Shown here piece by piece: positions 43,846 through 59,021 of a stretch of DNA of 64,000 bases. A program made the translations under genes and the position numbers. Source of the DNA: a candidate division FCPU426 bacterium (GTDB taxonomy: Bacteria; Oederibacteriota; JAAXVQ01; JAUVAV01); the NCBI GenBank assembly GCA_040756875.1, contig JBFLYH010000001.1, positions 288,001 through 352,000 of the forward strand, given 5' to 3'. The notes beneath the pieces were generated by a model. The model was given only the letters and a program-made list of their open reading frames with translations. It ran no database searches and was not told where the DNA came from. The first letter of the stretch is position 1. Each line of letters begins with the position of its first letter.

Positions 43846-43875
43846 TTGACAAATAAAAGGTATTATTGTTAATAT
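43846..43875 (+). promoter_or_regulatory. Sigma70 promoter of the dsrE-tusA-hdr operon, within an AT-rich intergenic region
   Basis: TTGACA-N18-TAATAT with TGn. Confidence 0.6.
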
Positions 43876-43957: not shown

Positions 43958-44524
43958 ATGCCGGCAGAATCCGAAAAAAATCAAACCAGTGGACCGATCC
44001 AGCTTCAGGAACTTGCCGCGCGCGTGGCCAAACTGGAAAAAAACGCCCCCCAGGACCGCCTAACCCTGGGTGTTATGAAAGGCGACCTGGATTACACCAT
44101 GGCCGCATTCATTATCGCCCTGGGAGCCGCAGCCTACGACATGCAGGTGGATTTGTTTTTCACCTTCTGGGCCACAGCCTCCCTGCGGGATCCCAAGAAA
44201 AAGGCCAGGAAGGGCCTGCTGGACAAAATGTTCGGCTGGATGCTGCCCCGGGGGTCTTTCCGGCTGCCCCTGTCGAAGATGCAGATGGCCGGCATCGGCC
44301 CCCTGATGATCCGGCAGGTGATGAAAATGCGGCACGTGAAATCCCTGGAAGGGCTCATGGCCGAAGCGGCAGCCCTGGGCATTCGCATCCACGTATGCAC
44401 CATGTCCATGGATGTCATGGGGATCAAGAAAGAGGAACTGATCGATTATCCGCATATGGATTTTGTCGGCGTGGGAACGTTTGTGGACATGTTCTCCAAT
44501 TCCAAACAGTGCTGGTTCATGTAG
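43958..44524 (+). CDS. DsrE/DsrF/DrsH-like (DsrE2-type) sulfur-transfer protein
   Basis: AFIIALGAAA, LFFTFW, LPLSKM, HVCTMSMDVMGI, GVGTF. Confidence 0.9.
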   Translation: MPAESEKNQTSGPIQLQELAARVAKLEKNAPQDRLTLGVMKGDLDYTMAAFIIALGAAAYDMQVDLFFTFWATASLRDPKKKARKGLLDKMFGWMLPRGSFRLPLSKMQMAGIGPLMIRQVMKMRHVKSLEGLMAEAAALGIRIHVCTMSMDVMGIKKEELIDYPHMDFVGVGTFVDMFSNSKQCWFM

Positions 44525-44545
44525 GCGGCCGGCGAAGGAGCGCAA

Positions 44546-44800
44546 ATGAACACCGATGAACTGAAGGCCCTGAAAGTTGACAAGGAAGTGGACGCCCGCG
44601 GCATGGCTTGCCCCGGCCCCCTGCTTGAAGCCAAGCGGGCCGTGGCCGAGGTTTCCGGCGGCCAGGTCATGCAGGTGATGTCCTCGGACGAAGGCACGCT
44701 CTCGGACATGCAGCGGTGGTCGCAGAAGATCGGACATGAGTATCTGGGCCACATTGAAGAAGACGGCTTCTGGAGCATCTTCGTCCGGATCAAAAGCTAA
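44546..44800 (+). CDS. tusA: TusA/SirA family sulfur carrier
   Basis: VDARGMACPGPLL, SSDEGTLSDM..W...GHEYL. Confidence 0.92.
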   Translation: MNTDELKALKVDKEVDARGMACPGPLLEAKRAVAEVSGGQVMQVMSSDEGTLSDMQRWSQKIGHEYLGHIEEDGFWSIFVRIKS

Positions 44801-44819
44801 GGACACAGGCTGGCCGGTC

Positions 44820-45215
44820 ATGCCTCCATCCCCCAAGATATTGGTTTTTTCCACCAATAATATTTCCGATCCCGGAATCGACTTCGCGGGCAGCGCGCAC
44901 CTTCACTATTCGACCGCGGTGCGCGTGGTAGCCTTGCCCTGTTCCAGCGGGATCAAGCCCGCCTGGATCGAGCACGCCTTGAAGTCCGGGTTCGACGGGG
45001 TGTTCGTCGCGGCCTGCGGAGGAGACTGCGCCTTCTTGCCCAATTGCAACCAGTTGACGGGCCAAGTCGTGCAAAAGGCCCAGGCGCTGCTCAAATCGTC
45101 CGGCCTCAATCCCAAACGGCTGAAGATGGCCGCCATTTGCTCGGTGTGCGCCGAGCAGTTCGTCACGCACATGCACAATTTTGAGAAGGAACTCGTCAAA
45201 CTTGCCGCCTCTTGA
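44820..45215 (+). CDS. mvhD: MvhD/FlpD-like iron-sulfur subunit with atypical Cys pattern
   Basis: PKILVF, D.AG....Y, LPCSS, GFDGVFVAAC..DC, GLNPKRL. Confidence 0.82.
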   Translation: MPPSPKILVFSTNNISDPGIDFAGSAHLHYSTAVRVVALPCSSGIKPAWIEHALKSGFDGVFVAACGGDCAFLPNCNQLTGQVVQKAQALLKSSGLNPKRLKMAAICSVCAEQFVTHMHNFEKELVKLAAS

Positions 45216-47949
45216 AAGCAGTCACCACCACTATGACGCGTTGATCGTCGGCGCGGGCACTTCGGGCATGGAGGCCGCCCTCACGCTGGGCGACATGGGC
45301 CATCGCGTGCTGCTGGTCGAAAAGGAACCCAGCATCGGCGGGAAAACCATCCTGCTGAGCAAGGTGTTTCCCACCCTCGACTGCGCCAGCTGCATCTCCA
45401 CGCCCAAAATGGCGGCCACGGCGCATCATCCGAACGTGACCTTGATGGTTTCCACCGAGGCCGAAGCGGTCGAAAAAAACGACGGCCGTTTCCGGATCAG
45501 GCTGCGCCACCGGGCCACTTCGGTGCATCCTGACTTGTGCACGGGCTGCGGCCAATGCGAAACCGCCTGCACGGTCGCGGTGCCGGACCAGTATAATTAC
45601 GGCCTGGCCGCCCGGCGGGCGGCGCACATTCCCTTTCCCCAGGCCATTCCCAAGAAAGCGGTGATCGAGAAGGAAGGATCCGCGCCCTGCCACCGCGCCT
45701 GTCCGGCCGGGGTGCACGCCAGCGGATTCGTCTCCCTGGTGCGGAGCGGCAAATACCGGGAGGGCTTCCTGCTCCACCTTGAGGATGCGCCCCTGGTCGG
45801 CGTGCTCAGCCGCGCCTGTTACGCGCCCTGTGAAGGGGAATGCACGCGCACCGACCTGGAAGGCGCGGTCAACATCCGCGCCGTCAAGCGTTTCATGTCC
45901 GACCGTTACTACGCCGACCATCCTGAACCTGAATACGGCCCGCCTGCCGAACGCCTGAACACGCGCGTGGCCGTGGTGGGTTCCGGGCCGGCCGGCCTGG
46001 CCGCGGCCTTTTACCTCGCCCGCCAAGGGCACGGCGTGACGATCTTCGAGTCGCAGCCCGAACCCGGCGGCATGCTGCGCTACGGCATTCCGGCCTACCG
46101 CCTGCCGCGCGAAGTGGTGGACCGGGACATCAGGAACGTCACAGCCCTGGGCGTGGAGATCAAGACCAACGCCAAAGTGGAATCGCTCGCGGCCCTCCAG
46201 GGCCAAGGCTTTGACGGCGTCGTCGTGGCCGTGGGCGGGCAGGTGCCCCGCATCGTGCCGCTGGCGGGCGTTGAACGGGTCGACCAGGACGACTGCATGA
46301 ATTTCCTCAGCCACAGCCAGAGCAAACAGGCGGAGATCCGCAACCGGCACGTGGTGGTGATCGGCGGCGGCAACGTGGCCATGGACGTGGCGCGTTCGGC
46401 CGTGCGCCTGGGTGCGGCCGCGGTCTCGGTGCTGTGCCTGGAGTGCCGGGCTGACATGCCGGCCCACCCCTTCGAAGTGGTGGAAGCCGAGGAAGAGGGA
46501 GTTAATTTCCATCCGGCCTCGGTCACCAACCGCATTTTCAGCGGGCCGGAAGGCCCGCTGCTCGAGTTCGTGCAAATTCATTCGTTCCAAATGGTGGAAG
46601 GCAAACCGAGTTATCAAACCATGCCGGGCAGTGAACGGCAAATCCGCGCGGACGTGGTGATCATGGCGGTCGGCCTTGCGCCCAGCACCTTGCCGTTCCG
46701 CGGGGAAGTGGAGCTCAACCGCAACCAGACCATCCGCGCGGACGAGGAAACGCTGGAAACCTCCCGGCCGCTGGTTTTTGCCTGCGGCGACGCGGTCATG
46801 GGGCCGGCCATCATTGTCAAATCCATCGGCCAGGGCAAGCGGGCCGCGCACTATCTGGATTTGAAGCTCAAGCAACAGCCTTTGGCGCCCGCAGCCTGGA
46901 TGGCTCTGCCGGAGGCGGCTGACAAAGTCGCGGTGCTTAAAAATGAAAAAGGCGCGCCGAGGCGGGAACCGGCGGCCCAGCGGATGAAAACTCCCAAGGA
47001 ACGCGTGGCCAGCTTCGAAGCGTACGAAGGCGCGCTGACGGAAGCGGAGGCGCGCTCAGCCGCAGGCCGCTGCCTGGATTGCGCGGTCTGCTCCCAGTGC
47101 CTGGAGTGCGTGCGCGTCTGCCCGGCGAATGCCGTTGATTTCGGCATCCGTCCGCGCATGGAACAGGTGACCGCCTCGGCCGTCATCCTGGCCGGCGGGT
47201 TCGAGATCCTCGATCCGGCCGCCAAGCCGCTGCTGGGATTCGGCCGTTATCCCGACGTCCTTTCCGCGCCGCAGATGGACCGCCTGCTGGCTCCCACGCG
47301 GCCGTTCAACGGCGTGCTGCGCCCGTCCGACGGCCGGGAACCGGAACACATCGCCATGGTGCTGTGTTCAGGGGCCAGGGACCATACGGTTTGCAACCCC
47401 CTCTGCTGCCGGATCGGGTGCATGTACGCCCTCAAACAGGCGCAGTTGCTGATGGGCGCACTGCCCCTGGCCGAGGTCACGATTTACTACATCGACATCC
47501 GCGCCTTCGGCAAGGGGTACGACGAGTTTTTCGAACAGGCCAGGGGCATGGGCGTCAAATTCGCGAAAGGCAAAGTTGTCCGCATCGAGGAAAAGCCGGG
47601 GGGCGGCCTGCTTCTGCATTACGAGGACATGGCCGCGGGTGCGGGCCCCAAAACCGCGGAGCATGACCTGGCCGTGCTGTCCGTGGGCCTGCAGCCCAAC
47701 CGCGCGCTCCTGGACCGGCTGGGAGCCCTGCGGCCGGAAACCGACGAGCAGGGATACGTGCGCGAAGCCGGCGGCATGACTGATCCGGCCGCCACCAATG
47801 TTGAAGGCCTGTTCGTGGCCGGCGCTTTTCCCGGGGGCCGCGACATCCCGGATGCGGTGCTGCACGCCGCGGCCACGGCCACGCAGGCTGCGCGTTATCT
47901 GGCGAAAAAAGAAAACCAGCCGGCCGGACCGGCGCAGGAGGGCCGCTGA
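45181..47949 (+). CDS. hdrA: HdrA-like flavoprotein with inserted GltD/NfnB-like NAD(P)H oxidoreductase module (HdrL type); start may be TTG 45202
   Basis: IVGAGTSG, LSKVFPTLDCASC, CTGCGQCETAC, APCHRACP...CYAPCEGEC, VGSGPAG, IGGGNVAMD, RCLDCAVCSQCLECVRVCP, YYIDIRAFGK. Confidence 0.92.
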   Translation: MRRNSSNLPPLESSHHHYDALIVGAGTSGMEAALTLGDMGHRVLLVEKEPSIGGKTILLSKVFPTLDCASCISTPKMAATAHHPNVTLMVSTEAEAVEKNDGRFRIRLRHRATSVHPDLCTGCGQCETACTVAVPDQYNYGLAARRAAHIPFPQAIPKKAVIEKEGSAPCHRACPAGVHASGFVSLVRSGKYREGFLLHLEDAPLVGVLSRACYAPCEGECTRTDLEGAVNIRAVKRFMSDRYYADHPEPEYGPPAERLNTRVAVVGSGPAGLAAAFYLARQGHGVTIFESQPEPGGMLRYGIPAYRLPREVVDRDIRNVTALGVEIKTNAKVESLAALQGQGFDGVVVAVGGQVPRIVPLAGVERVDQDDCMNFLSHSQSKQAEIRNRHVVVIGGGNVAMDVARSAVRLGAAAVSVLCLECRADMPAHPFEVVEAEEEGVNFHPASVTNRIFSGPEGPLLEFVQIHSFQMVEGKPSYQTMPGSERQIRADVVIMAVGLAPSTLPFRGEVELNRNQTIRADEETLETSRPLVFACGDAVMGPAIIVKSIGQGKRAAHYLDLKLKQQPLAPAAWMALPEAADKVAVLKNEKGAPRREPAAQRMKTPKERVASFEAYEGALTEAEARSAAGRCLDCAVCSQCLECVRVCPANAVDFGIRPRMEQVTASAVILAGGFEILDPAAKPLLGFGRYPDVLSAPQMDRLLAPTRPFNGVLRPSDGREPEHIAMVLCSGARDHTVCNPLCCRIGCMYALKQAQLLMGALPLAEVTIYYIDIRAFGKGYDEFFEQARGMGVKFAKGKVVRIEEKPGGGLLLHYEDMAAGAGPKTAEHDLAVLSVGLQPNRALLDRLGALRPETDEQGYVREAGGMTDPAATNVEGLFVAGAFPGGRDIPDAVLHAAATATQAARYLAKKENQPAGPAQEGR

Positions 47950-49685
47950 TGGCCGCGAACCCTTCCCCGGAAAAACGGATCGGCGTGTACGTCTGCTACT
48001 GCGGCGGCAATATATCGGATTACGTCGATGTGCAGAAGATCGCGGAAGCGGTCAGGCAGGAGCCGGGCGTGACGGTTGCCCGCAACCACATGTTCACCTG
48101 TTCGGATGCTGCCCAGCAGGAAATCATCCAGGACATCAAGGATCAGCACCTGGACGGCCTGGTGATCGCCTCCTGTTCCCCCAAACTTCATATGTTCACC
48201 TTCCGGGGCATGGCCGAGCGCGCGGGCATCAACCCCTACCAGTATATCCAGGTGAACCTGCGCGAGCAGTGCTCCTGGGCCCACCGGCAGGAGCGCGACC
48301 AGGCGACCCAAAAGGGCGTGGCCTTGGTCAAAGCCGGCATTGCCAAAGCCCGTTTCACCGAGCCGCTGGCCCCCATCCGGGTGACCACCAAGCCCAGGGT
48401 CCTGGTGGTCGGCGGCGGCATGACCGGCCTGGCCGCGGCCCGGGCCTTGTCGGACCTCGGAATCGGGGTGGACCTGGTCGAGAAAAGCGGCCGCCTGGGC
48501 GGATGGACCGCCGAGTGGGAGCGCGTGTATCCGGGCGGTCAGGACGGAGTCGCCCTGGCCAAGGCCCTGGCCGGGGAAGTGGCCGGGCGGCCGAACGTGC
48601 GGGTATGGACTGAAACCGAAGTGGTGGACAAAGGCGGACACCTGGGTGATTTCGAAATCACCGTGCAGTCGCCCGACGGCCGCCACACACTGTCCGCCGG
48701 CGCCATCGTGGCGGCCACGGGTTTTGATCCTTACCAGCCCCAGGCCGGGGAATTCGGCTACGGCCTGCCGGACGTGGTGACCCTGCCGGATTTCAAGAAA
48801 AGGCTGGGAACGGGGAAGCCGCTGGCCACGGCCGACGGCCGGCCGGTGAAGAAAATCGCTTACATCTACTGCGTGGGCAGCCGGCAGAAAAAAGCGCCGG
48901 GAGCCAATACCCACTGCTCCCGTTATTGCTGCACCGCAGCCTGCTTTTCCAGCGTCAGCGTGCACGCGGCGGATCAGGAAGTCGTCCAGTACCATTTGTT
49001 CCGCGACATCCGCACATTCGGGGAACACGAGCTGCTGTACGAACAGGCGCGCCGGGAGGGCGCCGTGTTCCTGCGCTACGAAGCCGGGGAACCGCCCCAG
49101 GTGGAGTCCGCGGAACAAGGCCTGCTGGTCTCGGTCAAGGATCAGCTGACCGCGGGCGAGCTGCTGGAGATTCCGGCCGACCTGGTGGTCCTGGTCACGG
49201 GCATGACACCCCGTAAAAACGAGAATCTGGTCAATGTCCTGAAGGTGCCGGTCGGGAGCAACGGTTTTTTCAATGAAATCCACCCCAAGCTGCGGCCTGT
49301 GGAAACGGTCATGGACGGCATTTTCATCGCCGGCGCGGCCCAAAGCCCGCGCCTGATCGGCGAGGCGGTCGGATCCGCCTTGGCGGCGGTGAGCAAATGC
49401 GGCGCCCTGCTGAAGAAGGGGTTCGTGGACCTGGAACCCTTGATCGCCACGGTGCGCCAGGATCGCTGCGAATGGTGCGGGCTGTGCCAGCCCGTATGCC
49501 CCTACCGGGCCATCGAGATGGTGTCCTGCGACGGCAAGGACAAAGCGCAGATCATCCCCTTTTTATGCAAAGGCTGCGGCGCCTGCGTGCCGATGTGCCC
49601 CAAAGACGCCATTGACGTCAAAGGCTACAGCGACGAGCAAATCACATCCATGATTTCAGCTTTGGCTGGGGAGCGGACAGCATGA
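47949..49685 (+). CDS. hdrA: Heterodisulfide reductase subunit A family protein (QmoB-like architecture, no fused MvhD)
   Basis: IGVYVCYCGGNI, VIASCSP, NLREQCSW, VVGGGMTG, YCVGSR, HCSRYCC, HPKLRP, C-terminal 2x[4Fe-4S]. Confidence 0.94.
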   Translation: MAANPSPEKRIGVYVCYCGGNISDYVDVQKIAEAVRQEPGVTVARNHMFTCSDAAQQEIIQDIKDQHLDGLVIASCSPKLHMFTFRGMAERAGINPYQYIQVNLREQCSWAHRQERDQATQKGVALVKAGIAKARFTEPLAPIRVTTKPRVLVVGGGMTGLAAARALSDLGIGVDLVEKSGRLGGWTAEWERVYPGGQDGVALAKALAGEVAGRPNVRVWTETEVVDKGGHLGDFEITVQSPDGRHTLSAGAIVAATGFDPYQPQAGEFGYGLPDVVTLPDFKKRLGTGKPLATADGRPVKKIAYIYCVGSRQKKAPGANTHCSRYCCTAACFSSVSVHAADQEVVQYHLFRDIRTFGEHELLYEQARREGAVFLRYEAGEPPQVESAEQGLLVSVKDQLTAGELLEIPADLVVLVTGMTPRKNENLVNVLKVPVGSNGFFNEIHPKLRPVETVMDGIFIAGAAQSPRLIGEAVGSALAAVSKCGALLKKGFVDLEPLIATVRQDRCEWCGLCQPVCPYRAIEMVSCDGKDKAQIIPFLCKGCGACVPMCPKDAIDVKGYSDEQITSMISALAGERTA

Positions 49686-49918
49686 GAAACCTGAGGACCG
49701 TCATGCGCGATGAAATGGTCAAACGCGACGAAATCCTGCGTTTGCTGCAGGACGGCCCCAAAACCGTTCCCGAGATCGCCCGGGCCCTGAACGCGCCCAC
49801 GGCGGATGCGGTGTTGTGGATGATGGCCATGCGCCGGTACGGCTGGATTGCGGAAACCGGCCGGCCGAATACCGAAGGCTATTTTGCCTATGCCCTGATC
49901 AAGAAGGACCAGCCATGA
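49682..49918 (+). CDS. Small winged helix-turn-helix protein
   Basis: EILRLLQDGPKTVPEIARAL...MRRYGWIAETG; ATGA-coupled on both sides. Confidence 0.8.
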   Translation: MRNLRTVMRDEMVKRDEILRLLQDGPKTVPEIARALNAPTADAVLWMMAMRRYGWIAETGRPNTEGYFAYALIKKDQP

Positions 49919-50214
49919 CCCGGGTCAACGCGGAATTCCCGAAGACATTCGATGCCACGGGCGAATTCGACGCCGCGCCCTGCATGAACTGCGGCACGTG
50001 CACGGCGTTGTGCCCCATGGAATTGACCAGCCTGCCGCGCGAACTGTTCCGCTACGCCCAACTGGGAATGGCGGACAAAATCGGCCAGCACGCGGAGACG
50101 GTTTTTTCCTGCCTGCTCTGCCGCATGTGCGAGGTCAACTGCCCCTCCCAGGTGAAGATCGCGGGCAATGTGCGGGCATTGCGGGCCTACCTCAACCGCA
50201 AGGAGGGCGTGTGA
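49915..50214 (+). CDS. HdrC-like 4Fe-4S dicluster protein
   Basis: CMNCGTCTALCP and CLLCRMCEVNCP. Confidence 0.88.
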   Translation: MTRVNAEFPKTFDATGEFDAAPCMNCGTCTALCPMELTSLPRELFRYAQLGMADKIGQHAETVFSCLLCRMCEVNCPSQVKIAGNVRALRAYLNRKEGV

Positions 50215-51185
50215 GCGCGAACTCCCTGCCGCGGAAACATGTCATCGGCATCCTGGCGGACAACCTCCGCCTGCGGGGAAGCGTCATGCCGCTTTCCGGC
50301 CGCCGCCTCACCGCCTGGGCCAGGGGTTTGCATCTGCCTCGCGGCGGGGACACCGTGATTTACACCGGCCACATGTATCAAATGATGCCCGCCCTGGGCT
50401 CTCTGGAGGCGGGGCTGGCTCTGGCCGCGAAACTGTCGCTCACCCGGTTGATGGGCCTCGGCCGCTGGGTGAACCGGCTGGTCGACCTGTCAACGTTCAT
50501 GACCTGGCCATCAGGCCGGGAGCAGCGCGAGTACGACGGCCGCTTGCGCCGGATCGCGAAACGGCTGCTGGCCGCCAAGGTAACCTTCGGGTATCTGTAC
50601 GAAAAGGAACTGTACACCGGCGCGCTGCTCTACGATTTGGGGGCCGAGGAGGTCTTTCGCAGCCATGCGCAGAAGGTCTGGCACCTGCTCAAGGCGCAAG
50701 GCGTGAAACGCGTGATTACCGTCGATCCCCATACCATGGATATGCTGCGCGAAGTCTATCCCCGTTATTGTCCGGATTACCGGATGGAAGTCGTCAGTTA
50801 TCTTGAAGTGCTATCGCAGGCAGAGGCGCCCGCAGCGCCAAACGCCGGCAAGATGGCGAAGGAGTGCGTGGCGCTCCACGATTCCTGCCTCTATGCCCGG
50901 GTGTTGGACGTTGTCGAACCGCCCCGGCGGTTGCTGGCGCAAGACCGCCGGCCTGAGGCCGAACATGCCCAATCGCGGGCCGCGACCCATTGTTGCGGCG
51001 GCCCGCTTGAATCCCTGTTTCCGGACAAAGCCGAGACAGTGGCCAGGACCCGGTTTGCCCAGTTGGAGCAGACCGGTTGCAAATCCGTTGCCGCCATGTG
51101 TCCCATCTGCCTGCACAATCTGCGCAAAGCCGCAGCCGGGAAGGGAATCGAGGTCAGGGATTTTTCGGAAGTTTTGGACCGTTGA
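50211..51185 (+). CDS. CCG-domain Fe-S protein (HdrB/HdrD-like)
   Basis: GTG start in a GTGA overlap with GGAGG RBS; ITVDPH, LHDSC, HCCGG, MCPIC. Confidence 0.87.
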   Translation: MSANSLPRKHVIGILADNLRLRGSVMPLSGRRLTAWARGLHLPRGGDTVIYTGHMYQMMPALGSLEAGLALAAKLSLTRLMGLGRWVNRLVDLSTFMTWPSGREQREYDGRLRRIAKRLLAAKVTFGYLYEKELYTGALLYDLGAEEVFRSHAQKVWHLLKAQGVKRVITVDPHTMDMLREVYPRYCPDYRMEVVSYLEVLSQAEAPAAPNAGKMAKECVALHDSCLYARVLDVVEPPRRLLAQDRRPEAEHAQSRAATHCCGGPLESLFPDKAETVARTRFAQLEQTGCKSVAAMCPICLHNLRKAAAGKGIEVRDFSEVLDR

Positions 51186-51197
51186 TGGCAGGCTAAG

Positions 51198-51254
51198 TCC
51201 CCCAATAAATAAAAACCTCGCCTGAATCAGGCGGGGTTTTTATTTATTGGGGGA
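51198..51254. terminator. Bidirectional intrinsic terminator; 28-bp inverted repeat
   Basis: TCCCCCAATAAATAAAAACCTCGCCTGA-A-TCAGGCGGGGTTTTTATTTATTGGGGGA between convergent genes. Confidence 0.9.
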
Positions 51255-51268
51255 TGATCGAGGCTGGT

Positions 51269-51742
51269 TTACTTCTGTTTGAAAATATGGTCGTTTTTAC
51301 GGACTTTTTCATCCACCTTGATGCCCACAGCCTGGCCGGCAGCAGCCTGGCTGACCGGAGCATGCTCAATCTGAATAGAACGGACAATCTGTTCGGTATT
51401 GGTGGTAAAGCCGCGGATGGAAACCATTTCGCCTACGGACAAAGGCGCTTTCAATGTAGTCAGAATGACTTCCAAGTGGCTGAGATAATCCTCCACTACT
51501 CCGGCTAAAACTTCGTTTTGACGGGGTTGATGCCAGGCGGGTTCTGCGGCTGGCGCGGAAACCTTCTTTTTTGCCGGCGCGGATTTAATGGCGGGCTTTT
51601 TGACTTTCTTAGATGCGTTTTTTTTAACCGGCTTTTTAGCCCGTTTGATGCTTTTTTTAACGGGTTTTTTCGCGGCTTTGGCGGAAGCTTTCCGCTTCGG
51701 TTTGGCTTTGGATTTTTTGGCTTTTTTCTTCGCGGTTGGCAT
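51269..51742 (-). CDS. Lys/Ala-rich histone-H1-like tail fused to an EF-Tu domain II/U32-C-like beta-barrel
   Basis: About 65 aa of KKAKK/KKPVKK repeats, then GVVEDYLSHLEV...LSVGEMVSIRG.TT...Q.V.SIQIEH...GQAVGIKVDEKVRKND. Confidence 0.8.
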   Translation of the reverse strand: MPTAKKKAKKSKAKPKRKASAKAAKKPVKKSIKRAKKPVKKNASKKVKKPAIKSAPAKKKVSAPAAEPAWHQPRQNEVLAGVVEDYLSHLEVILTTLKAPLSVGEMVSIRGFTTNTEQIVRSIQIEHAPVSQAAAGQAVGIKVDEKVRKNDHIFKQK

Positions 51743-51895
51743 GGTCAGGCTTCACCCCCGTTTGAAAGATTTTGGAAAGAAGAAGCTTATCTGCCTTATA
51801 GCACTTTCGGGATGGAAAGGGAACAGGAAAGTAAAAGCCTGAAAAATGTCCTGCGGCCCGCCCTGGGCCAAGGCGGGTGGCGGTTTTCGCATGAT

Positions 51896-54409
51896 TTAAA
51901 TTGGATATTTAGGCTCGTTTTGGATTGGCCCATCATCCTGAAGCGGTAAGCGGATGATGAAGGTGGTGCCTTGGCCGCTTCGGGTGGTGACGTGGATGCT
52001 TCCCTGGTGACGGTTTACGATGATGTTGTGGGCAATGGTCAATCCTTGGCCCGTGCCTTTGCCTACTTCTTTGGTGGTGAAAAAGGGGTCGAAAATGCGC
52101 GTCAGCAGGTGCTCGGGAATGCCGGTGCCCGTATCAGCGACTCGGATCTCCGCATGGGCTCCCTCCATCCGGGTGCTGATGGTAATCTGACCCTTGCCTT
52201 TGCCCCCGCCTTCTGTTACGTCGCTGATGGTGTGCGCGGCATTGACGATTAAATTAAGGATGACTTGGTTGAATTCGCCCGCGAAGCAGGGCACCGCCGG
52301 GAGTTGAAGATCGAAATCGGTCACGACCTCCGCGATGTATTTCCATTCATTGCGCGCCACGATCAGGGTGCTGGAGATTGCTTCGTTGAGGTTGACGAGC
52401 GTTTTTTGAGAACTGTCCGGATGGGCGAAGTCTTTCATGGCCCGGACGATGGTGGTCACGCGCTTGATCCCTTCTTGAGCCTGCTGGATCGCCTTGGGAA
52501 CCTCGGTGGAGAGGTAGGGGAGGTCGGCTTTGGACAGACTCGTCTCCACCTGTGCGACCAGCGCGCGGTCGATTTCACCCTGACGGGCTGAATCCAACAA
52601 GGACGTATACCCGGAAATCACCGGTTTGATGTCCTCGAGGGATTCCTGCAAGAACCTCAGGTTGTCTCCCACGTATTGTGTCGGTGTATTGATTTCGTGC
52701 GCGATGCCGGCGGCCAATTGCCCGATGGACTCCAGCTTTTGGGCTTGCAGGAGTTTGGTTTGCAGGCGTTCTTTTTCCAGCTCGGCCTGTTTGCGTTCGC
52801 TGAGATTGCGGAAGATGCCCTGAATGATCGTTTTCCCCCGGATGGAAACCACGGAGGCGTTTATTTCCACCGGGATGAGTTTGCCGGTTTTGGTCTTGAT
52901 CTCCGCCTCGTCACCGACCGTGATTTTTTGGCTGATGCGCCTTTTGAATTCCCCCTCATAAAAGGTCCGCTTCTCCTCGGGATAGATCGATATGGCTGGC
53001 CGGCCGATCAGGGCTTCGCGGGGAGTTTCCAAGAGGGCCTCGGCGGCGTGGTTGCATTTAAGGATCAAGCCGGTGGAAGTGTCCGCCCAAAAGATGGCGT
53101 CCTTGGCGTTTTCGAACGCCAGCCTGAATTCTTCCTCGCTCTCGGTCAAAGCCTCTTCGACTTTGATCCTTTCCGATATTTCCACCAGCAAGGCGTCGCG
53201 CGAAACAGTGGTTTTTTCGAGCGCCACGGTCATTTGGTTGAAGCTGTCGGCCAATTCACCGATTTCGTTGCGGGAATGGATATCGATGTGCAGATTCATG
53301 TTGCCGCGGCTGATTTCGCGGGTGGCGTCCCGCAAACGGATAATCGGCTCGGTGATCTTTTTGGAAATCAGTATGCTGGCCAAAAGAACCAGCAACAGGC
53401 TGAGGAAAACAGCCCCGAAAGACATTTTCAACCCGCGGATCACGTTTTCGTAGGCTTCGGTCGCCGGCAGTTCCACCACCACCGCCCAGTTCGGCATGCC
53501 GAGATGGACGTGGTTGGATACGACCCAGGTGTTGAGAATGCCTTTGACGATATCCGTGTTGGTGGTATGCGTCTTGGTATCCCCTTGGGTAAAAATGTCA
53601 ACCTGTTTGAGGTACTTAAGGTTTTCGGCCTTTAATACGCGGCTGATGTCCTTGAAAGCCAATAGGACGCCTTGGTCGTTGACGACATAGGCCAATCCTT
53701 TTTTACCGATCTTGAGATTGTCAATCAATTCCCAAATGTACTTCAGTTTGACCTCGGCCAATAATACTCCTTTAAAATCGCCGAAGATATTGTTGATCGG
53801 AACGCCCATGATGACCATGGGTTCTGAGGTTATTTTATCCACGTAAACCGGGCTGATATATTGATCGCCTGGCTTTTGCAAGGCGCGGATCTTGCCGTCG
53901 ATTCGGCCGTAAAAACTGCTGGAATCGAGTTTGGACAAGCGGGAGAGCTGGGTGATCTCGTGGTATTGGGGATTGAGGATCGCCAATTGATTGAAGGAAG
54001 CTTCGGCCCCCATTATTTTGTTGAGTGTCAGTTTCAGGTTGGCCGAGTTCTCTTTGGCTAGATTGCCGAGGAGAATGGCGTTGGATAGGATCGTGAATTT
54101 GTCGTGAAGATACTCTCTGACGTGGTCAGTCGCATTTTGGGCAATGAGGTGCTGTTGCGAAACGATAACGGTCTTTTCATATTGATAGCTGGCGAAAATG
54201 ATGATGAGATACGAAAACAGCAGTACCAGAGTACAGAGGTGAAAAAAGGTTGAGAAAAGCGTGAAAGTCAAGCCCTGGAAACGAATGTTGTGCAAGCCGA
54301 GTCTGGAGACCAACGCACGCCAGGCTTGGCGCAGACGGTCAAACCACGAAGCCAAGCCGGGCCATGAATATCTATGTAAAGTGCGATTCGATTTCGAACC
54401 AAGCGTCAT
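51896..54409 (-). CDS. Sensor histidine kinase (dCache-HAMP-PAS-HisKA-HATPase)
   Basis: YISPVY and AYVVNDQG (Cache), NEIGELADSFNQM (HAMP), PAS, GIAHEINTP, LNLIVNAAH, DTGTGI, FDPFFTTK, GTGQGL. Confidence 0.95.
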   Translation of the reverse strand: MTLGSKSNRTLHRYSWPGLASWFDRLRQAWRALVSRLGLHNIRFQGLTFTLFSTFFHLCTLVLLFSYLIIIFASYQYEKTVIVSQQHLIAQNATDHVREYLHDKFTILSNAILLGNLAKENSANLKLTLNKIMGAEASFNQLAILNPQYHEITQLSRLSKLDSSSFYGRIDGKIRALQKPGDQYISPVYVDKITSEPMVIMGVPINNIFGDFKGVLLAEVKLKYIWELIDNLKIGKKGLAYVVNDQGVLLAFKDISRVLKAENLKYLKQVDIFTQGDTKTHTTNTDIVKGILNTWVVSNHVHLGMPNWAVVVELPATEAYENVIRGLKMSFGAVFLSLLLVLLASILISKKITEPIIRLRDATREISRGNMNLHIDIHSRNEIGELADSFNQMTVALEKTTVSRDALLVEISERIKVEEALTESEEEFRLAFENAKDAIFWADTSTGLILKCNHAAEALLETPREALIGRPAISIYPEEKRTFYEGEFKRRISQKITVGDEAEIKTKTGKLIPVEINASVVSIRGKTIIQGIFRNLSERKQAELEKERLQTKLLQAQKLESIGQLAAGIAHEINTPTQYVGDNLRFLQESLEDIKPVISGYTSLLDSARQGEIDRALVAQVETSLSKADLPYLSTEVPKAIQQAQEGIKRVTTIVRAMKDFAHPDSSQKTLVNLNEAISSTLIVARNEWKYIAEVVTDFDLQLPAVPCFAGEFNQVILNLIVNAAHTISDVTEGGGKGKGQITISTRMEGAHAEIRVADTGTGIPEHLLTRIFDPFFTTKEVGKGTGQGLTIAHNIIVNRHQGSIHVTTRSGQGTTFIIRLPLQDDGPIQNEPKYPI

Positions 54410-54410
54410 G

Positions 54411-55427
54411 TCAGCGAATGACCTCGTCGGCCCTGTTTAATAACCCTTCATCGACCTTTAAACCGGCTTTAATCGCGGCTTTGTAATTGATTTGAAGGTA
54501 TGTTTCAGCTGAAACCACGGGAACCGTGCCTGCCGGGGCGCCTTGGAACACTTTGTGGACGAGAAAGGCCGCTTGCTTGCCCTGGGCGATGTTTTGCGGA
54601 GTAAGCCCAAAGACGGATTCATAACCGCCGGCTGACATCATGACCCCGCCGATGGGGATCCGGCGGCGATCGGCAAATGCCCCTAAAGACTGGAACAGTT
54701 CCGGTGTGACACTGAGAGGTTCGATAATAAGAAGGATGGCGTCAGGAGGTCCGGATGCTTTTAATTGCTGCTTCAGGTTGGATTCAAGTTCCTGGGGAGT
54801 CGTTGCGGGGATTTCCACCAACGAAAACCCCTGAGAGGTACTGGCCTGCTTAAGAATGTCCAATTGGCAGGGGAGTATGGGATAACCGCGATAGTAGGGC
54901 ACCCATAATTTGCTTAAACGGGGAACCAACTCTTGCATGATCTCGAGGCGTTTGAGAACGATGTTCGGACCCAGCCAGCAAACGCCGGTTATATTTTCGC
55001 CGGGCGTGCGAATGCTGTCCACCAGCCCGGTGTTTTCCAGAAAGACGTTGACCGCAACCACCGGAGTTTTAGTGCCTTTGGTAAGGGTTTTGGCTTCCAT
55101 GGAGGCTTCGGTTGGGAACGCCAGGATCAAATCAACCTTGTCATCCAGGAATTTCTTCACGATATTTTGGTATGAGGCGATATCGACGTTTGATTTTTGG
55201 ATGTCATAGACGACATTCTTTCCTTCGATATAGCCGAACTCCGCCATCTTTTCTTTGAATCCGTCGCTGATGGTGGAAAAGTAATCCAAACCGGAAAGAA
55301 TGCCTATGCGGTAAACCGGATGTGAATTTGTACTGCAACTGCTCGTTAGACAAAAAACGCCAAAAGCGAGTAAACACGGGAGGTAAAATAATTTCGAAGC
55401 CGTATATGACTTTGGCATTCTCATCAA
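54411..55427 (-). CDS. ABC_sub_bind-type solute-binding lipoprotein, orphan
   Basis: Lipobox TSSC; GFKEKMAEFGYIEGKNV, GLVDSIRTPGENITGV, LQINYKAA, LLNRADEVI. Confidence 0.88.
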   Translation of the reverse strand: MMRMPKSYTASKLFYLPCLLAFGVFCLTSSCSTNSHPVYRIGILSGLDYFSTISDGFKEKMAEFGYIEGKNVVYDIQKSNVDIASYQNIVKKFLDDKVDLILAFPTEASMEAKTLTKGTKTPVVAVNVFLENTGLVDSIRTPGENITGVCWLGPNIVLKRLEIMQELVPRLSKLWVPYYRGYPILPCQLDILKQASTSQGFSLVEIPATTPQELESNLKQQLKASGPPDAILLIIEPLSVTPELFQSLGAFADRRRIPIGGVMMSAGGYESVFGLTPQNIAQGKQAAFLVHKVFQGAPAGTVPVVSAETYLQINYKAAIKAGLKVDEGLLNRADEVIR

Positions 55428-55802
55428 CTCCTTTGCTGATAGCTTGAATAGCCCCAGACGGCAGGAATAATCGGCATTTATGCCTCGCTATTAGAATCGG
55501 CAATTCAGCCTTGAAATGTAGCCGAGAATTCCTCGGGGGAAACCTGAAAAGGCTTGAATTATATACGCGAATGCAAACCGGGGTGTTCCGGCTGGGGTAC
55601 GAAAGGATGCCAAGGCCTGGAAGTTCGAAAGAAAGCCGGCGTGCTGAATGAAGGGATGTGATGGGAAAAAATAAGACCGGCCGGGATTTTTATGAAACGG
55701 CATTCGATTCTGGTGTGATAAAATGCGTTTCAAAACAAATGGTCGGCGTCAGGGTCGGATGGATTTCGAAAGAACTTTACCCGGGCCGGAATTCCCATTG
55801 GG

Positions 55803-57548
55803 ATGATGATGAAAATATACTTGCGACAATTGGGCATAATTATTAAAAGGATGGCGCTGGGCGCCGTAACGTTGGGTCTCGCGGGAACGGCTCCTTGCTT
55901 TGCCGCAGAGTTGTTGCGCAGCGTTGGATATGGAAACGTAGATCCGCTTAGAGACGGCGCTACTCCGCCGGCGATAACCATGCGCATTATATCCAGCGCG
56001 CAATTCAGCGCAGATCTGCCTTTGAACATCGGGGTGGGTGACTGCATTATTTATGATTCGGGAACGGATCATGTTTATGATTCCGTCGCATTCATTTATC
56101 AGCGCCTGGATGCCCGTAACTATCAGGTTTGCGATGCCGCCGGACAGGATCCCGTTACCACTACTGGATATATTCAGGATTGGAGGATTTACCGGGCGTA
56201 TGCTTCGTTAGCGGATGCAGCCCGGGGTCTGGAAAATCCTGGGATGAGCGGTTTTTCAGGATGGAATTTTGACAATCACATGGCCAGCTTCGCCATGACG
56301 GATTCCTGGAGCTTTGCCTGTTATGCGGATGCCCCCAATACCAATACTGCGGATTTCAGCGCCTGGATGACCGCCATACCCCAAAATAGATTGAAAATAT
56401 TCGTTCCGGCTATCACCACTTCCGGCGGGGAAGTCGGTGTTTCTCAGAGGCACAACGGCGTGTGGAGCGCGAGCGCCTTTGTGTTCGTGGTCGGGAATTC
56501 AACCGGGCTGAATGTGATGAGAAATACAACCATTGAGGGCCTGCAATTTCAGAATACCGGCGGCACTGCCAATATTGCCGCCGTATACGGGGCATTCATC
56601 ACGGATTCGGATGTGCGAATAACGAAATGCATTTTCCGGGGACCCGGGGGCTCAACCGACGCCGTTCTCCATGCGCTTGATTTTGGCAATATGAACGCGG
56701 GAGAAGTCAAAATCTGGAACAATATTTTTTATGATTATAAAACCATTGCCGAAGGAAATGCGGCCATCTATGCGACCTCCACGGCAGCCGGCTTTCTGAT
56801 TCATTGTTACCACAATACCATTGTGAATTGCGAAAGCGGTATTAACGCGGCGAACCAAGCGGTTGCTTATGCCAAAAATTGCATGGTTTTGGATATCGAC
56901 CTCGCGTTGGGCGCCAGTTACAGCGGAGTGGCGGCAGCCGGTTCAACCAATAATCTGTCGAATGACGGCATTCTTCCTCCTGGGGCAGGCTCGAGGAACG
57001 GCACGCCGCTGTTTGCCGATGCCGCGGGCAAGAATTTCCATTTGGCCGCCGCGGACACGATAGCCTGCAATCAAGGCGCGGATTTAACCGGCGATGCCTA
57101 TTTGTATATCAACGATGATATTGATGGGAATATTCGGGGGGCATATGACGGTTGGGATATTGGTGCGGATGAACTGGCCCTGCAGCCCACTTTTACTCCG
57201 AGTGTTTCACCAACCATCAGTCCGACCCCGACTCAAACTCCGACACGGACGACGACCCCCTCGCTAAGCGCCTCCCTGCCTGAACCTGCCCAGGAAATCG
57301 CTTATCCCAATCCTGCCCGCAGCGGTGTGGTGGCTTTCACCAGCAGGCCCGGAACGGGTGAACGTGTGACGGTCCGGGTTTTCACCATGGCTTACCGCCA
57401 AGTTTGGCATGCGACGATTGCGGGTGTCCCGGGCCAGATCAATCGGATGGAATGGAACATCAGCGGCATGCCTCCGGGGATCTATCTGTACCAGATCGAA
57501 ACCGGCTCCAGAAAAACGCCATTTAAAAAATTGGCCATCATCAAATGA
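55803..57548 (+). CDS. Secreted beta-helix-like protein with Pro/Thr linker and T9SS-like C-terminal domain
   Basis: Signal peptide; WNNIFY/YHNTIV repeats; NFHL...DIDG..R...WDIGADE; PTFTPSVSPTISPTPT; AYPNP...WNISGMPPGIYLYQI...KKLAIIK. Confidence 0.82.
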   Translation: MMMKIYLRQLGIIIKRMALGAVTLGLAGTAPCFAAELLRSVGYGNVDPLRDGATPPAITMRIISSAQFSADLPLNIGVGDCIIYDSGTDHVYDSVAFIYQRLDARNYQVCDAAGQDPVTTTGYIQDWRIYRAYASLADAARGLENPGMSGFSGWNFDNHMASFAMTDSWSFACYADAPNTNTADFSAWMTAIPQNRLKIFVPAITTSGGEVGVSQRHNGVWSASAFVFVVGNSTGLNVMRNTTIEGLQFQNTGGTANIAAVYGAFITDSDVRITKCIFRGPGGSTDAVLHALDFGNMNAGEVKIWNNIFYDYKTIAEGNAAIYATSTAAGFLIHCYHNTIVNCESGINAANQAVAYAKNCMVLDIDLALGASYSGVAAAGSTNNLSNDGILPPGAGSRNGTPLFADAAGKNFHLAAADTIACNQGADLTGDAYLYINDDIDGNIRGAYDGWDIGADELALQPTFTPSVSPTISPTPTQTPTRTTTPSLSASLPEPAQEIAYPNPARSGVVAFTSRPGTGERVTVRVFTMAYRQVWHATIAGVPGQINRMEWNISGMPPGIYLYQIETGSRKTPFKKLAIIK

Positions 57549-59014
57549 AACCTTCCTGCCTCATCTTTTTGATTTTATCTCTCGCAGGCGTTCTGGGAGC
57601 CCGTCCCGCTTTTGCCCAGGCGGCGGGCGAACTGTTGCTCCTTGATAAAGGGGCGCGCGCGGCAGCCTTGGCCGGTGCTTTGTGCGCTTCTCCGGAATCA
57701 GGTCCTTTCGGGTTTGTCTACAATCCGGCCGGATTGGCGGCTCAAAACGTCTTGGCTTTCGGTTTCGAGCATAATGAATGGGGACAGGGCATGCGCGGGG
57801 AATATCTGGCTGCTGCCAGCCCGCTGGGGTCCGGAACCCTGGCCGGGGCACTGGATTATTTTTCGTACGGGACCTTGGAAGTCACGGATGGAAACGGCCG
57901 GATCAGCGGTGAAACCCTCGCACCCTATCTGCTAGGGGCAAGATCCGCCTATGCCCTGTGGGTACGGCCTCGTCTGGCAGCAGGGGCCCAAGTTGATTTT
58001 TATATGGAAAACATCGGCGACTTCACCGAGCTGGGTGGCGGACTCTCTGTGGGTGCTTTCTGGAAGTCGCCCTGGCAGGGGGTGAGCGCTGGCTTGACGG
58101 TGCGAAATCTCGGGCTGACCCGCTCCGGCTATAGCCTTCCCAGCCGGGTGATTTTGGGCTGCTCCTGGATGAACGCCCTGGTCGATCGATTAGCACTCTA
58201 CCTGGAAACGGGATTTAATTGGGTGGATTCAGAGGCGGCTGTGGCTTTGGCCGCAGAATATCAAGCCCTTTCTTGGCTGGATCTGCGACTGGGATATCGC
58301 CCACATCTGTCTATGGCGGAAACCGCCCCCTTGGGTGTAACCGCTGGGATCGGGTTTCATTGGCAGGACTGGCAGCTGGGATATGCCGTGGTGCCTTTGG
58401 GGGAATGGGGCTGGGCTCACCGGCTCTCGCTGGAAATGGCGATTAAACCGGCTCCAAACCTGGAACAGATTCCCGGTAAAACTGCCGCAGTGTCGTCACA
58501 GCCTGCTCGAAAAACCGCCGAGGACATGGCCAAACAACTGGCCGGCGTGGTCAGAAAACGGTTTGAATTAGGGCTGAAACAATATCAGAATGGCAATTAC
58601 AAAGCCGCCATTCGCGAGTGGAAAATGGTATTGGATATTGCTCCTCATCATGAGGAAACCAAGGAATACATACAAAAAGCGGAAAACAAGTGGGAGGCAC
58701 TGCTGGACAATTACCGGCAGAACGCCAGGCAGGCCCGGCTGCAAAAGGATTTGGCGGAAGAGATAATGAACTGGAAGGACGTTTTGGCATTGGTACCCGG
58801 AGATCAGGAGGCGCAACAGGGGTTGGAGAGCGCCCAGAAACTGGTGCCTGCCATGGCCCAGGCCTATTACAACGCCGGCCTGGATGATTACAGCAAGGGC
58901 CGTTATCAGGAAGCAATAAAGAATTGGGAAAAAGTCCTGGCGTTGGATCCTGGTCACTACAAAGCCATGGAAAGCATCCAAAAAACCAAGGAAAAATTGA
59001 TAAAAATCGAATAA
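57545..59014 (+). CDS. PorV/PorQ (FadL-like) beta-barrel protein fused to C-terminal TPR repeats
   Basis: Signal peptide; GARAAALAGA, VYNPAGLA, GLTVRNLG, LRLGY, GIGF...YA..P.GEWG..HRLSL; then TPRs (GLKQYQNGNYKAAIREWKMVL, GLDDYSKGRYQEAIKNWEKVLALDP). Confidence 0.85.
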   Translation: MKPSCLIFLILSLAGVLGARPAFAQAAGELLLLDKGARAAALAGALCASPESGPFGFVYNPAGLAAQNVLAFGFEHNEWGQGMRGEYLAAASPLGSGTLAGALDYFSYGTLEVTDGNGRISGETLAPYLLGARSAYALWVRPRLAAGAQVDFYMENIGDFTELGGGLSVGAFWKSPWQGVSAGLTVRNLGLTRSGYSLPSRVILGCSWMNALVDRLALYLETGFNWVDSEAAVALAAEYQALSWLDLRLGYRPHLSMAETAPLGVTAGIGFHWQDWQLGYAVVPLGEWGWAHRLSLEMAIKPAPNLEQIPGKTAAVSSQPARKTAEDMAKQLAGVVRKRFELGLKQYQNGNYKAAIREWKMVLDIAPHHEETKEYIQKAENKWEALLDNYRQNARQARLQKDLAEEIMNWKDVLALVPGDQEAQQGLESAQKLVPAMAQAYYNAGLDDYSKGRYQEAIKNWEKVLALDPGHYKAMESIQKTKEKLIKIE

Positions 59015-59021
59015 CCCATTC

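Follow-up and report, generated by a model that had tools for sequence, protein, structure and literature searches.

What reaction is carried out by a protein complex whose genes join sulfur carriers of the TusA and DsrE families to electron-transfer proteins of the heterodisulfide reductase (Hdr) type? This question is raised by an operon of a candidate division FCPU426 bacterium (assembly GCA_040756875.1), located in a stretch of 64,000 nucleotides of contig JBFLYH010000001.1 (positions 288,001 to 352,000, forward strand) that is called the window here and whose numbering is used for all of its features. In the open reading frames (ORFs) of the window, the operon is read as eight co-directional ORFs on the + strand, starting with the ATG at 43958 and ending with the stop codon at 51185, in the order dsrE2-tusA-mvhD-hdrL-hdrA-wHTH-hdrC-CCG, where wHTH denotes a winged-helix protein and CCG an HdrB-like subunit. 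The original prediction had proposed this eight-gene set, and every domain that it named was confirmed by Pfam and NCBIfam searches; it had also proposed an NAD(P)H-linked reductase acting on persulfides carried by TusA and DsrE proteins. Such an enzyme is still the best single reading, to which we assign a probability of about 0.4: the complex would be a soluble system of the Hdr/Qmo type with dedicated sulfur carriers, interconverting persulfide on TusA or a DsrE-family protein and sulfide with NADP(H), and the part of the proposal that has been weakened is the CCG site as the place where TusA acts. Since uncultured bacteria from many phyla share this gene set, the operon probably encodes an enzyme of cytoplasmic sulfur metabolism that is widespread and has yet to be named.

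Conservation and spread of the operon

Relatives of the CCG protein served as anchors for the survey of other genomes. At E<=1e-5, 2448 relatives were found among 8000 scored candidates, and the best 120 of them have 306-356 amino acids and identities of 49-100%. A CCG-anchored pattern scan of one genome per species (~185,000 species genomes) gave 302 loci, with the gene order checked in the best 80, nearly all of which come from metagenome-assembled genomes (MAGs). Genes were counted by tblastn with the eight window proteins in the 54 other-genome loci that have at least 6400 nucleotides upstream of the CCG gene. The wHTH and hdrC genes are present in all 54, hdrA in 53, mvhD and tusA in 52 each, and hdrL in 51, in the same order and at nearly constant positions, and the seven-gene core from tusA to the CCG gene is kept in order in 51-54 of the 54 loci, across more than 15 phyla. 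The carriers are labelled as Bacteroidales, Zixibacteria, Ignavibacteria, Nitrospiraceae, Verrucomicrobiota, Planctomycetota, Chloroflexota, Acidobacteriota, Actinomycetota, Spirochaetia, Kiritimatiellales, Hydrogenedentota, Myxococcota, and Alpha-, Beta- and Gammaproteobacteria. In a tree of the HdrA proteins the phyla are freely intermixed, which indicates that the module moved by horizontal transfer. Among 41 genomes of the host's phylum, a full HdrL orthologue was found only in the host, in a genus relative (82% HdrL identity) and in one MAG of the same order, and no match at 1e-20 was obtained when 72,556 plasmid records were searched by tblastn with the CCG protein.

Conserved linkage of tusA and dsrE genes to the hdr genes in other genomes had been named beforehand as the point on which the prediction could fail, and this linkage holds. 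In addition to tusA in 52/54 loci, a DsrE-family gene of either of two types adjoins the core in 40 of the 42 loci with enough flanking sequence on both sides. The DrsE_2 type found in the window is an accessory of the core, occurring in 30 of the 54 loci (before tusA in 24 and just after the CCG gene in 6), and a small DsrE protein (PF02635, about 124 amino acids) is encoded directly downstream in 39 loci by flank clustering and in 35 by a BLAST recount. The two loci that have neither are both from Bacteroidales, and one of them (L020) has a third DsrE-like ORF upstream. Rhodanese genes are found in several loci of both operon forms described below, and a TauE gene was found once.

The sulfur carriers

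The first gene encodes a DrsE_2-family sulfur-carrier-like protein (43958..44524, + strand, 188 amino acids) that matches Pfam PF13686 with 146.8 bits and the PDB entries 3pnx (1.3e-23) and 2qs7 by sequence, and whose Cys147 is kept in 30/30 relatives. The name dsrE2 is appropriate for this gene at the level of the Pfam family and too narrow at the level of the NCBIfam DsrE2 equivalog NF047629, where the protein reaches 51.4 bits, below the cut-off of 210. The second gene encodes TusA (44546..44800, + strand, 84 amino acids; 72.5 bits against PF01206, with a cut-off of 28.6), whose single cysteine, Cys22, lies in a CPGP motif and is kept in 59/59 sequences; the residues D16, A17, R18, G19, A21, C22, P23, G24 and P25 are invariant in the alignment of the TusA family. 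A DsrE-family carrier is found in nearly all loci that end with the CCG gene and also in those examined of the sister form that ends with a QmoC-like gene. The presence of TusA with its invariant Cys22 in both forms, together with this near-universal carrier, points to protein-bound sulfane sulfur as the substrate or product.

A role outside sulfur chemistry is very unlikely. In such a case the complex would be, for example, an oxidoreductase between NADPH and ferredoxin or another acceptor, with TusA and DsrE proteins serving maturation, regulation or an unrelated thiolation, and with selenium handling as a minor variant. TusA-family proteins do serve several pathways, the window TusA weakly matches YedF-type selenium proteins in NCBIfam, and the CCG protein and HdrL each partly match the NCBIfam family diclust_near_Sec. 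On the other hand, TusA in both forms, the near-universal DsrE-family gene of the CCG-type loci, the spread over more than 15 phyla and the recurring rhodanese genes make up a pattern not easily accounted for unless the substrate contains sulfur, and, in the case of selenium, no selD was found at the cut-off in the complete host genome (72.9 versus 125 bits).

Two complementary HdrA-type proteins

The redox center of the operon consists of two large proteins, HdrL (about 45181..47949, + strand, about 922 amino acids) and a second HdrA (47949..49685, + strand, 578 amino acids, with Fer4 and flavin adenine dinucleotide (FAD) motifs), both of which score best against the HdrA2/HdrA models of NCBIfam. 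HdrL matches Pfam Pyr_redox_2 and Fer4_20 and has the thioredoxin-reductase (FAD) core of HdrA without its N- and C-terminal cluster domains. Its inserted-ferredoxin domain is split by a module of ~480 residues (residues about 167-650) of the FAD/NADPH/2x[4Fe-4S] kind; NAD(P)-binding GltD-type models of NCBIfam match residues 159-653, the nearest structures are NAD(P)H modules of the NfnB type, of the GltD type or linked to formate dehydrogenase (9bov_A, 9n5u_A, 5jca_L), and the flanks match HdrA. The proposed fusion of an NAD(P)H module into one HdrA is therefore seen as a GltD/NfnB-like insert in HdrL. The Rossmann motif of this insert is GGGNVA (GxGxxA) in 59/59 sequences, which is of the NADP type by the rule quoted in PMC12054007, and the fused NADPH module names one redox partner of the complex.

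The second HdrA aligns to residues 3-235 and 320-646 of 5odc_A and skips residues 236-319. Its N-terminal cluster domain, FAD core and C-terminal ferredoxin domain are present and the inserted ferredoxin domain is absent, so that the loss of domains is complementary between the two proteins. They also differ at K409 and E356, the residues by which PMC12054007 separates bifurcating from non-bifurcating HdrA. In HdrL, K752 is invariant (59/59), and the residue at position 700 is D in 54 sequences and E in the other 5, while the second HdrA has F and K at the K409 and E356 positions, its family having K in 0/66 and E in 5/66 sequences. Judged from these aligned residues, the Lys/acid pair cited as the signature of bifurcation is kept in HdrL and lost in the second HdrA.

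HdrL has the architecture described as type III HdrA or HdrL in PMC12054007 and PMC2702500. As in the type III HdrA of ANME-1 and Bathyarchaeota (PMC12054007), a GltD-like domain lies in the inserted-ferredoxin domain, K409 is kept, and, as in the A9 class, the core is without cluster domains at its N- and C-termini. In contrast, the archaeal proteins have the NAD-type motif GXGXXG where GxGxxA is found here, and the E356 position is mostly Asp in HdrL. The available text of PMC12054007 gives no functional partner genes for ANME-1 and mvhADG for Bathyarchaeota, and contains no mention of TusA or DsrE.

The MvhD-like [2Fe-2S] protein (44820..45215, + strand, 131 amino acids) matches Pfam FlpD with 104.3 bits and has Cys41, 70, 76, 107 and 110, each kept in 59/59 sequences. 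The short HdrC (49915..50214, + strand, 99 amino acids; Pfam Fer4_17) is matched by NCBIfam HdrC models at positions 31-98 of 198, which corresponds to the two-cluster (2x[4Fe-4S]) core alone, and its eight cysteines are kept in 77/77 sequences. The cluster-ligand cysteines of the complex are all invariant in the family alignments.

The CCG subunit and its replacement by a QmoC-like protein

The last gene encodes the HdrB-like CCG protein (50211..51185, + strand, 324 amino acids), which is the sole CCG-domain gene of the host genome. It has one Pfam CCG stretch (33.4 bits) and a single motif of the CX34CCX34CXXC type in its C-terminal half, with C226, C261, C262, C297 and C300 kept in 81/81 sequences, and no conserved cysteine is found in the N-terminal half of the same 81-row alignment. 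A search of PDB sequences gave no match at E<=0.01, and its relatives were found by fold search only. Its AlphaFold2 (AF2) model has a predicted local distance difference test (pLDDT) score of 85.8, and Foldseek matches it to EtfD (9ojn, 1.3e-7), a LutA model (9a6l) and HdrB (8rwn_B and 5odc_B, about 1e-4), with E values from 1e-7 to 5e-4 and template modeling (TM) scores of 0.47-0.64. Its fold resembles that of HdrB, LutA and the CCG part of EtfD. Weak NCBIfam matches to DsrK and HmcF were also obtained. In one carrier, the match to the CCG gene (G095:C14:24962-25930) has two TAA stops, perhaps through decay of this copy or through an error in the assembly.

The operon exists in a second form. 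Metagenome contigs were scanned with the wHTH protein as the anchor, and the best 80 of the 353 relatives found were retained. Among the 44 of these loci with at least 1400 nucleotides downstream, an HdrC-like match follows in 43 and a CCG gene in 20. In the 14 CCG-less loci examined, the apparent HdrC is the N-terminus of a protein of 379-403 amino acids with 5-7 hydrophobic segments, and three of these subunits scanned against NCBIfam match the full QmoC model with 200-222 bits, below its cut-off of 300. The 17 ORFs scanned downstream of eight CCG-less loci gave nine Pfam matches (four DsrE-family, three rhodanese, one TauE and one PadR), and no CCG protein was found among them. Upstream, all 24 wHTH-anchored loci with at least 5400 nucleotides have tusA, mvhD, hdrL and hdrA, 11 of them being CCG-type and 13 QmoC-type. 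In the HdrA tree, which has 100 rows, the QmoC-type sequences stand in two places: a clade of 15, plus two rows elsewhere that nest with four CCG-type rows in a well-supported group. This group belongs to a larger CCG-type clade, among whose members are Chloroflexota MAGs. The CCG protein and the QmoC-like subunit are alternative ends of the operon, and their exchange leaves TusA-MvhD-HdrL-HdrA-wHTH plus an HdrC-type domain as the conserved unit.

The exchange of ends bears on the direction of the reaction. In an oxidative bifurcation, which we hold to be rather unlikely, sulfide or a carrier thiol would be converted into TusA persulfide and the electron pairs divided at the HdrL flavin, with an uphill path by way of the GltD-like module to NADP+ and a downhill path to a high-potential acceptor, namely quinone through QmoC in the sister form and a disulfide or persulfide at the CCG subunit in the window form. 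If true, NADPH would be obtained from sulfide without reverse electron flow, or TusA would be loaded for biosynthesis or for Dsr. The position of the GltD module favors it, at the inserted-ferredoxin domain that is the low-potential exit of canonical HdrA (PMC12054007), as does the constant adjacency of tusA to mvhD, MvhD being the subunit where the mid-potential donor enters Mvh-Hdr (PMC2702500). Moreover, HdrC and CCG, since they can be exchanged with QmoC, behave as a generic high-potential exit. Redox potentials would also fit, sulfide/sulfane at about -270 mV lying between NADP at about -320 mV and menaquinone at about -75 mV. On the other hand, no sulfide-oxidation site was identified in the complex, no high-potential acceptor is known for the soluble form, and the idea is formed wholly by analogy.

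In a related possibility, raised by the retention of tusA in the QmoC-type form, the core TusA-MvhD-HdrL-HdrA-wHTH would itself be a novel sulfur enzyme of the cytoplasm, a flavin-based, bifurcating sulfide/persulfide:NADP+ oxidoreductase, with the sulfur chemistry in the core instead of at a CCG cluster and with an exchangeable high-potential exit, an HdrC/HdrB-like pair in the window form and quinone by way of QmoC in the sister form. We consider this doubtful, although it would explain the travel of the module between many phyla, and, if true, anaerobes could make NADPH directly from sulfide or, in reverse, use sulfane sulfur as an electron sink.

The host genome

The host genome (3.22 Mb, 7 contigs) is 100% complete. 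No dsrA was found in it, not even a CysI-like match, by a search that was positive in 8/14 control genomes, and there were 0 matches to aprA (TIGR02061), to DsrC (PF04358) and to GCV_H/LbpA-type genes (PF01597), the latter search being positive in 13/14 control genomes. The sole NiFe-hydrogenase-like match is at C1:689856, ~350 kb from the operon. These results agree with the original prediction that the operon is unlike the sHdr and Mvh-Hdr systems, and the absence of flx that it had noted was borne out among the eight genes, to which that search was confined.

A second cluster of related genes is found at C1:30001-44000, ~250 kb upstream of the window. In it, a second hdrA (649 amino acids) and mvhD directly precede an [FeFe]-hydrogenase gene and follow an OFOR-type 2-oxoacid:ferredoxin oxidoreductase (OFOR), and the combination of OFOR with hdrA-mvhD-[FeFe]-hydrogenase points to a fermentative lifestyle of the host. 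A second tusA is also found in this region, inside a partner-switching cluster of the STAS/anti-sigma type. The host may have quinones, given a MenA-like gene barely over its cut-off (105.6 versus 102 bits). Since the genome shows no path by which sulfane sulfur could be turned into sulfite or sulfate, the reductive direction is the likely one in this host, and the lack of a downstream oxidation pathway (no dsrA, aprA or dsrC) counts against the oxidative bifurcation outlined above.

Comparison with described Hdr and Qmo systems

The single parts of the operon are of known kinds, these being HdrL or type III HdrA, MvhD, HdrC, an HdrB-like subunit, TusA and DsrE. The unit tusA-mvhD-hdrL-hdrA-wHTH-hdrC-CCG was not found described in searches of openly accessible papers. 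The closest described loci are those of HdrABC/HdrL in the sulfate reducers Syntrophobacter fumaroxidans (Sfum_0819-0824) and Desulfobacterium autotrophicum (HRM2 locus VIII), for which an NAD(P)H-linked confurcation or bifurcation has been proposed (PMC5947623, PMC2702500), and the closest logic is that of Qmo with its alternative of QmoC or HdrCB.

In the loci of the sulfate reducers, HdrL, a second HdrA, HdrC, HdrB and MvhD are found together without a hydrogenase catalytic subunit, as in the window, which is a likeness at the level of the published descriptions. Unlike the window, where no such protein is found among the eight genes, these loci have an FdhB-like Fe-S protein, and the available text of PMC5947623 and PMC2702500 mentions neither TusA nor a winged-helix gene. 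DsrC is the partner proposed there, and the window host has no DsrC.

The same loci give rise to a different view of the carriers, in which TusA and/or the DsrE-family protein would be redox-active thiol proteins, a DsrC-like "bacterial heterodisulfide", instead of sulfur carriers, and the complex an NADPH- and ferredoxin-linked reductase of protein disulfides or trisulfides used for redox balancing or energy conservation. This is unlikely, even though it resembles what has been speculated by the authors for HdrABC/HdrL of S. fumaroxidans, which was detected only with sulfate and might reduce DsrC (PMC5947623), even though hdrL and hdrA stand in tandem, together with hdrCB, in D. autotrophicum locus VIII (PMC2702500), and even though the single-motif CCG subunit resembles DsrK-type subunits, as reflected in the weak DsrK and HmcF matches. 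TusA has one cysteine only, so that a disulfide would require a second protein, the host lacks DsrC, and the QmoC-type form keeps tusA without any CCG site.

The Qmo systems (QmoABC and QmoAB-HdrCB) are similar to the window operon in having two tandem HdrA-like flavoproteins and an MvhD-type module, and in having either QmoC or HdrCB as terminal module, the same alternative as that between the window form and its sister form. In PMC6397845, "HdrAACB/QmoABHdrCB" is placed among sulfur-oxidation proteins, beside AprBA/AprM. Unlike Qmo, the window operon has its MvhD as a separate upstream gene, one flavoprotein with an NADPH module, large subunits that score best against HdrA2/HdrA models, and tusA, DsrE-family and winged-helix genes, and its host lacks aprBA.

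The sHdr-LbpA system likewise links an Hdr-like complex genetically to sulfur transferases of the TusA and DsrE families (PMC11094781), and a small extra gene likewise lies between hdrA and hdrC. The gene order of the window is neither shdrC1B1AHC2B2 nor the type II arrangement (PMC11094781), and, unlike sHdr, its operon has one HdrC/HdrB pair, large HdrA proteins in place of minimal ones, an NADPH module, MvhD and a CCG subunit with one motif, with no LbpA-type gene in the host. For the two HdrA-type proteins and the CCG subunit, the best relative by sequence or fold is the methanogen complex MvhAGD-HdrABC (PDB 5ODC, 8RVU), and homologues of its MvhD, HdrC and HdrB are encoded in the window operon. 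The window operon differs in that MvhA and MvhG are not among the eight genes, the functions of HdrA are split over two window proteins, neither of which has the full domain set, HdrC is half-length, the HdrB-like subunit has one CCG motif in place of the two that hold two noncubane clusters, and the NADPH module and sulfur carriers are added. The operon thus lacks defining features of each of Mvh-Hdr, sHdr-LbpA and the Apr-linked Qmo.

Proposed function

From the genes, domains, cofactor motifs, conservation and host inventory described above, we infer an assembly, a substrate, a direction and a possible bifurcation for the complex. HdrL and the second HdrA would form a heterodimer that jointly restores the domain set of the canonical HdrA dimer, with HdrL contributing an NADPH-binding NfnB/GltD-like module and a flavin with the bifurcation-type Lys/acid pair. 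Electrons could pass from the N-terminal cluster of the second HdrA to HdrC and on to the HdrB-like subunit, while its C-terminal ferredoxin domain would connect to MvhD. The reaction would interconvert sulfane sulfur (persulfide) bound to TusA or DsrE and sulfide, paid for by NADP(H). In a fermenter-like host without Dsr, NADPH would reduce the persulfide and H2S would be released, as an electron sink or as a means of disposing of reactive sulfur, and the HdrL flavin may couple the reaction to another electron partner, for instance ferredoxin.

Several observations weigh against this reading. A QmoC-like membrane subunit replaces HdrC and CCG in 13 loci and tusA stays in 13/13 of them, and the HdrA tree, made by a quick method with Shimodaira-Hasegawa-like approximate likelihood ratio test (SH-aLRT) support only, forces at least two changes of the terminal module as counted from starred branches. 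The CCG subunit has one cysteine motif, compared with two in HdrB. Because the QmoC-type form keeps tusA without CCG, the chemistry of TusA may lie away from the CCG site, and the earlier idea that the CCG protein handles the TusA persulfide is no longer secure. Additionally, the quinone-linked form suggests a different energetic logic, a reduction of persulfide by NADPH needs no bifurcating machinery, which leaves the elaborate wiring unexplained, and no YeeE/YedE-type sulfur importer was found in the host genome.

The distribution of Dsr is a further point on the same side. Among 50 carrier genomes, taken from the longer loci of the best 80 and being MAGs in which absences are soft, dsrA exceeds its curated cut-off in 24. 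In the class that contains the Zixibacteria- and Ignavibacteria-labelled carriers, of which 151 genomes were sampled (dsrA in 40/151, the CCG gene in 9/151), dsrA is found in 7/9 carriers versus 33/142 non-carriers, a comparison among kin that are not independent and in which five of the nine carriers already belong to the set of 50. In the order of the Rhodoferax carrier, the operon is present in 1/251 genomes, the seed itself, and dsrA in 50/251. The operon is perhaps enriched ~two- to threefold in lineages with Dsr, of the oxidative and the reductive kind alike, relative to lineage base rates for dsrA of 20-26%, and in many hosts the complex may serve a Dsr-based metabolism instead of standing alone. 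The carriers include dsrA-positive sulfur-oxidizer lineages (MAGs of Rhodoferax, Rhodocyclaceae and Sedimenticolaceae), which is a point in favor of the oxidative bifurcation. Dependence on Dsr as a general rule is rejected, given that the host and its genus relative are without dsrA and 26/50 carriers have no match above the cut-off. The description of the complex as self-contained is plausible for the Dsr-less host, but 24/50 carriers also have dsrA.

The NADP(H)-linked persulfide chemistry retained here as the preferred reading would be of interest for the fields of sulfur metabolism and flavin-based bifurcation. The handling of sulfane sulfur in the cytoplasm of anaerobes is poorly understood beyond Dsr and sHdr, and the operon combines rigid conservation and evident movement between phyla with a connection to NADPH. 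Should TusA persulfide be reduced or formed by the complex, it could be a missing link for the reduction of sulfur or polysulfide by fermenters, the detoxification of reactive sulfur under anoxic conditions, or the supply of sulfur to Dsr. Moreover, the operon represents a natural experiment in the rewiring of Hdr and Qmo, with split HdrA roles, an NADPH module in place of a ferredoxin site, and exchangeable ends. Its components are small enough for heterologous production, which makes the question directly testable.

The winged-helix protein and accessory genes

The winged-helix gene (49682..49918, + strand) encodes a protein of 78 amino acids without cysteines that matched no curated family, reaching 19.9 bits against Pfam HTH_5 (cut-off 22). 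Its AF2 model (pLDDT 90.6) is a minimal winged helix, helix-helix-helix-strand-strand, which Foldseek matches to generic MarR/ArsR cores. A search of 1.84 billion proteins gave 460 cluster representatives of the family at E<=0.001, and, among the matches listed, most are stand-alone proteins of 75-100 amino acids. In three relatives (P0171, P0140 and P0134), the domain stands at the C-terminus of a longer protein (302, 165 and 136 amino acids, respectively), and such fusion partners might hint at the binding partner of the winged-helix protein. A complex prediction with HdrC and the CCG subunit gave a score of 0.00, which is no answer and is neutral as evidence. In two Acidobacteria MAGs and one Phycisphaerae MAG (L030, L084 and L061), the wHTH gene has moved to just after the CCG gene; the gene is mobile within the operon, yet retained.

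Other genes accompany the core in some carriers. An ArsR-family gene lies directly upstream in 28 loci by clustering and in 25 on recount, including 21/42 of the well-flanked loci, and the window has no such gene. These regulators (e.g., L030:3990-4343) have two conserved cysteines, C16 in at least 90% of sequences and C87 in all. They match SqrR (6o8l) and BigR (3pqj), and NolR, SmtB and HlyU match equally well or better; in the HlyU alignment, the residues facing C16 and C87 are not cysteines, and HlyU's own cysteine (RLQILC) lies elsewhere. Their assignment as persulfide sensors of the SqrR/BigR type could not be established. Downstream of the operon, a cytidylate-kinase-like protein of 273 amino acids (PF13189) with one invariant cysteine (e.g., L071:4640-5461) is encoded in several phyla, in 14 loci by clustering and 13 on recount.

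Gene layout and flanking signals

The genes of the window operon are tightly packed and read as translationally coupled, with gaps of 21 nucleotides after the DrsE_2-type gene and 19 after tusA. The hdrL and hdrA genes overlap by 1 base, and the hdrA/wHTH, wHTH/hdrC and hdrC/CCG pairs by 4 bases each. The mvhD and hdrL genes also overlap, to an extent that hinges on the uncertain start of hdrL: a relative from the same order has a stop codon where the window hdrL has its first codons, so that the true start is probably slightly downstream of 45181. Selenocysteine in HdrL was considered and rejected, the TGA in the match of a same-order genome preceding the real start and not standing at a catalytic cysteine.

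A Shine-Dalgarno sequence, AAGGAG, lies 6 nucleotides 5' of the ATG at 43958. A sigma-70-like promoter candidate (43846..43875, + strand; TTGACA-18-TAATAT with a TG extension, 10/12 positions) ends 83 nucleotides 5' of this start codon. Downstream, a long palindrome at 51200..51252, found by reading of the sequence, lies between the operon and a convergent gene. It is near-perfect and unusually long, with 18-nucleotide AT-rich arms around a GC hairpin at its center, which is preceded by an A-run and followed by a T-run, and the scan for flanking signals flags the hairpin on the - strand (51233-51219). From this structure, the palindrome is likely a bidirectional terminator common to both transcription units. 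Of the single promoter and single terminator that had been predicted, the latter is accordingly matched by a terminator-like palindrome, while the former has weak support, 3 sites having been found by the promoter scan versus 2.0 expected from shuffled sequence. No RNA run containing the stretch was found in a search of sequencing runs, which is neutral, speaking neither for nor against expression; the single run that contains it is a DNA run from a groundwater metagenome, which may be its source.

The convergent neighbor (51269-51742, - strand) is an ORF of 157 amino acids whose first ~75 residues are rich in Lys, Ala and Pro and histone-H1-like, followed by a globular tail, and the next gene, also on the - strand, encodes an 837-amino-acid protein similar to sensor histidine kinases. 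The G+C content is ~0.62-0.66 within the operon and falls to 0.50-0.55 downstream of it (51000-64000).

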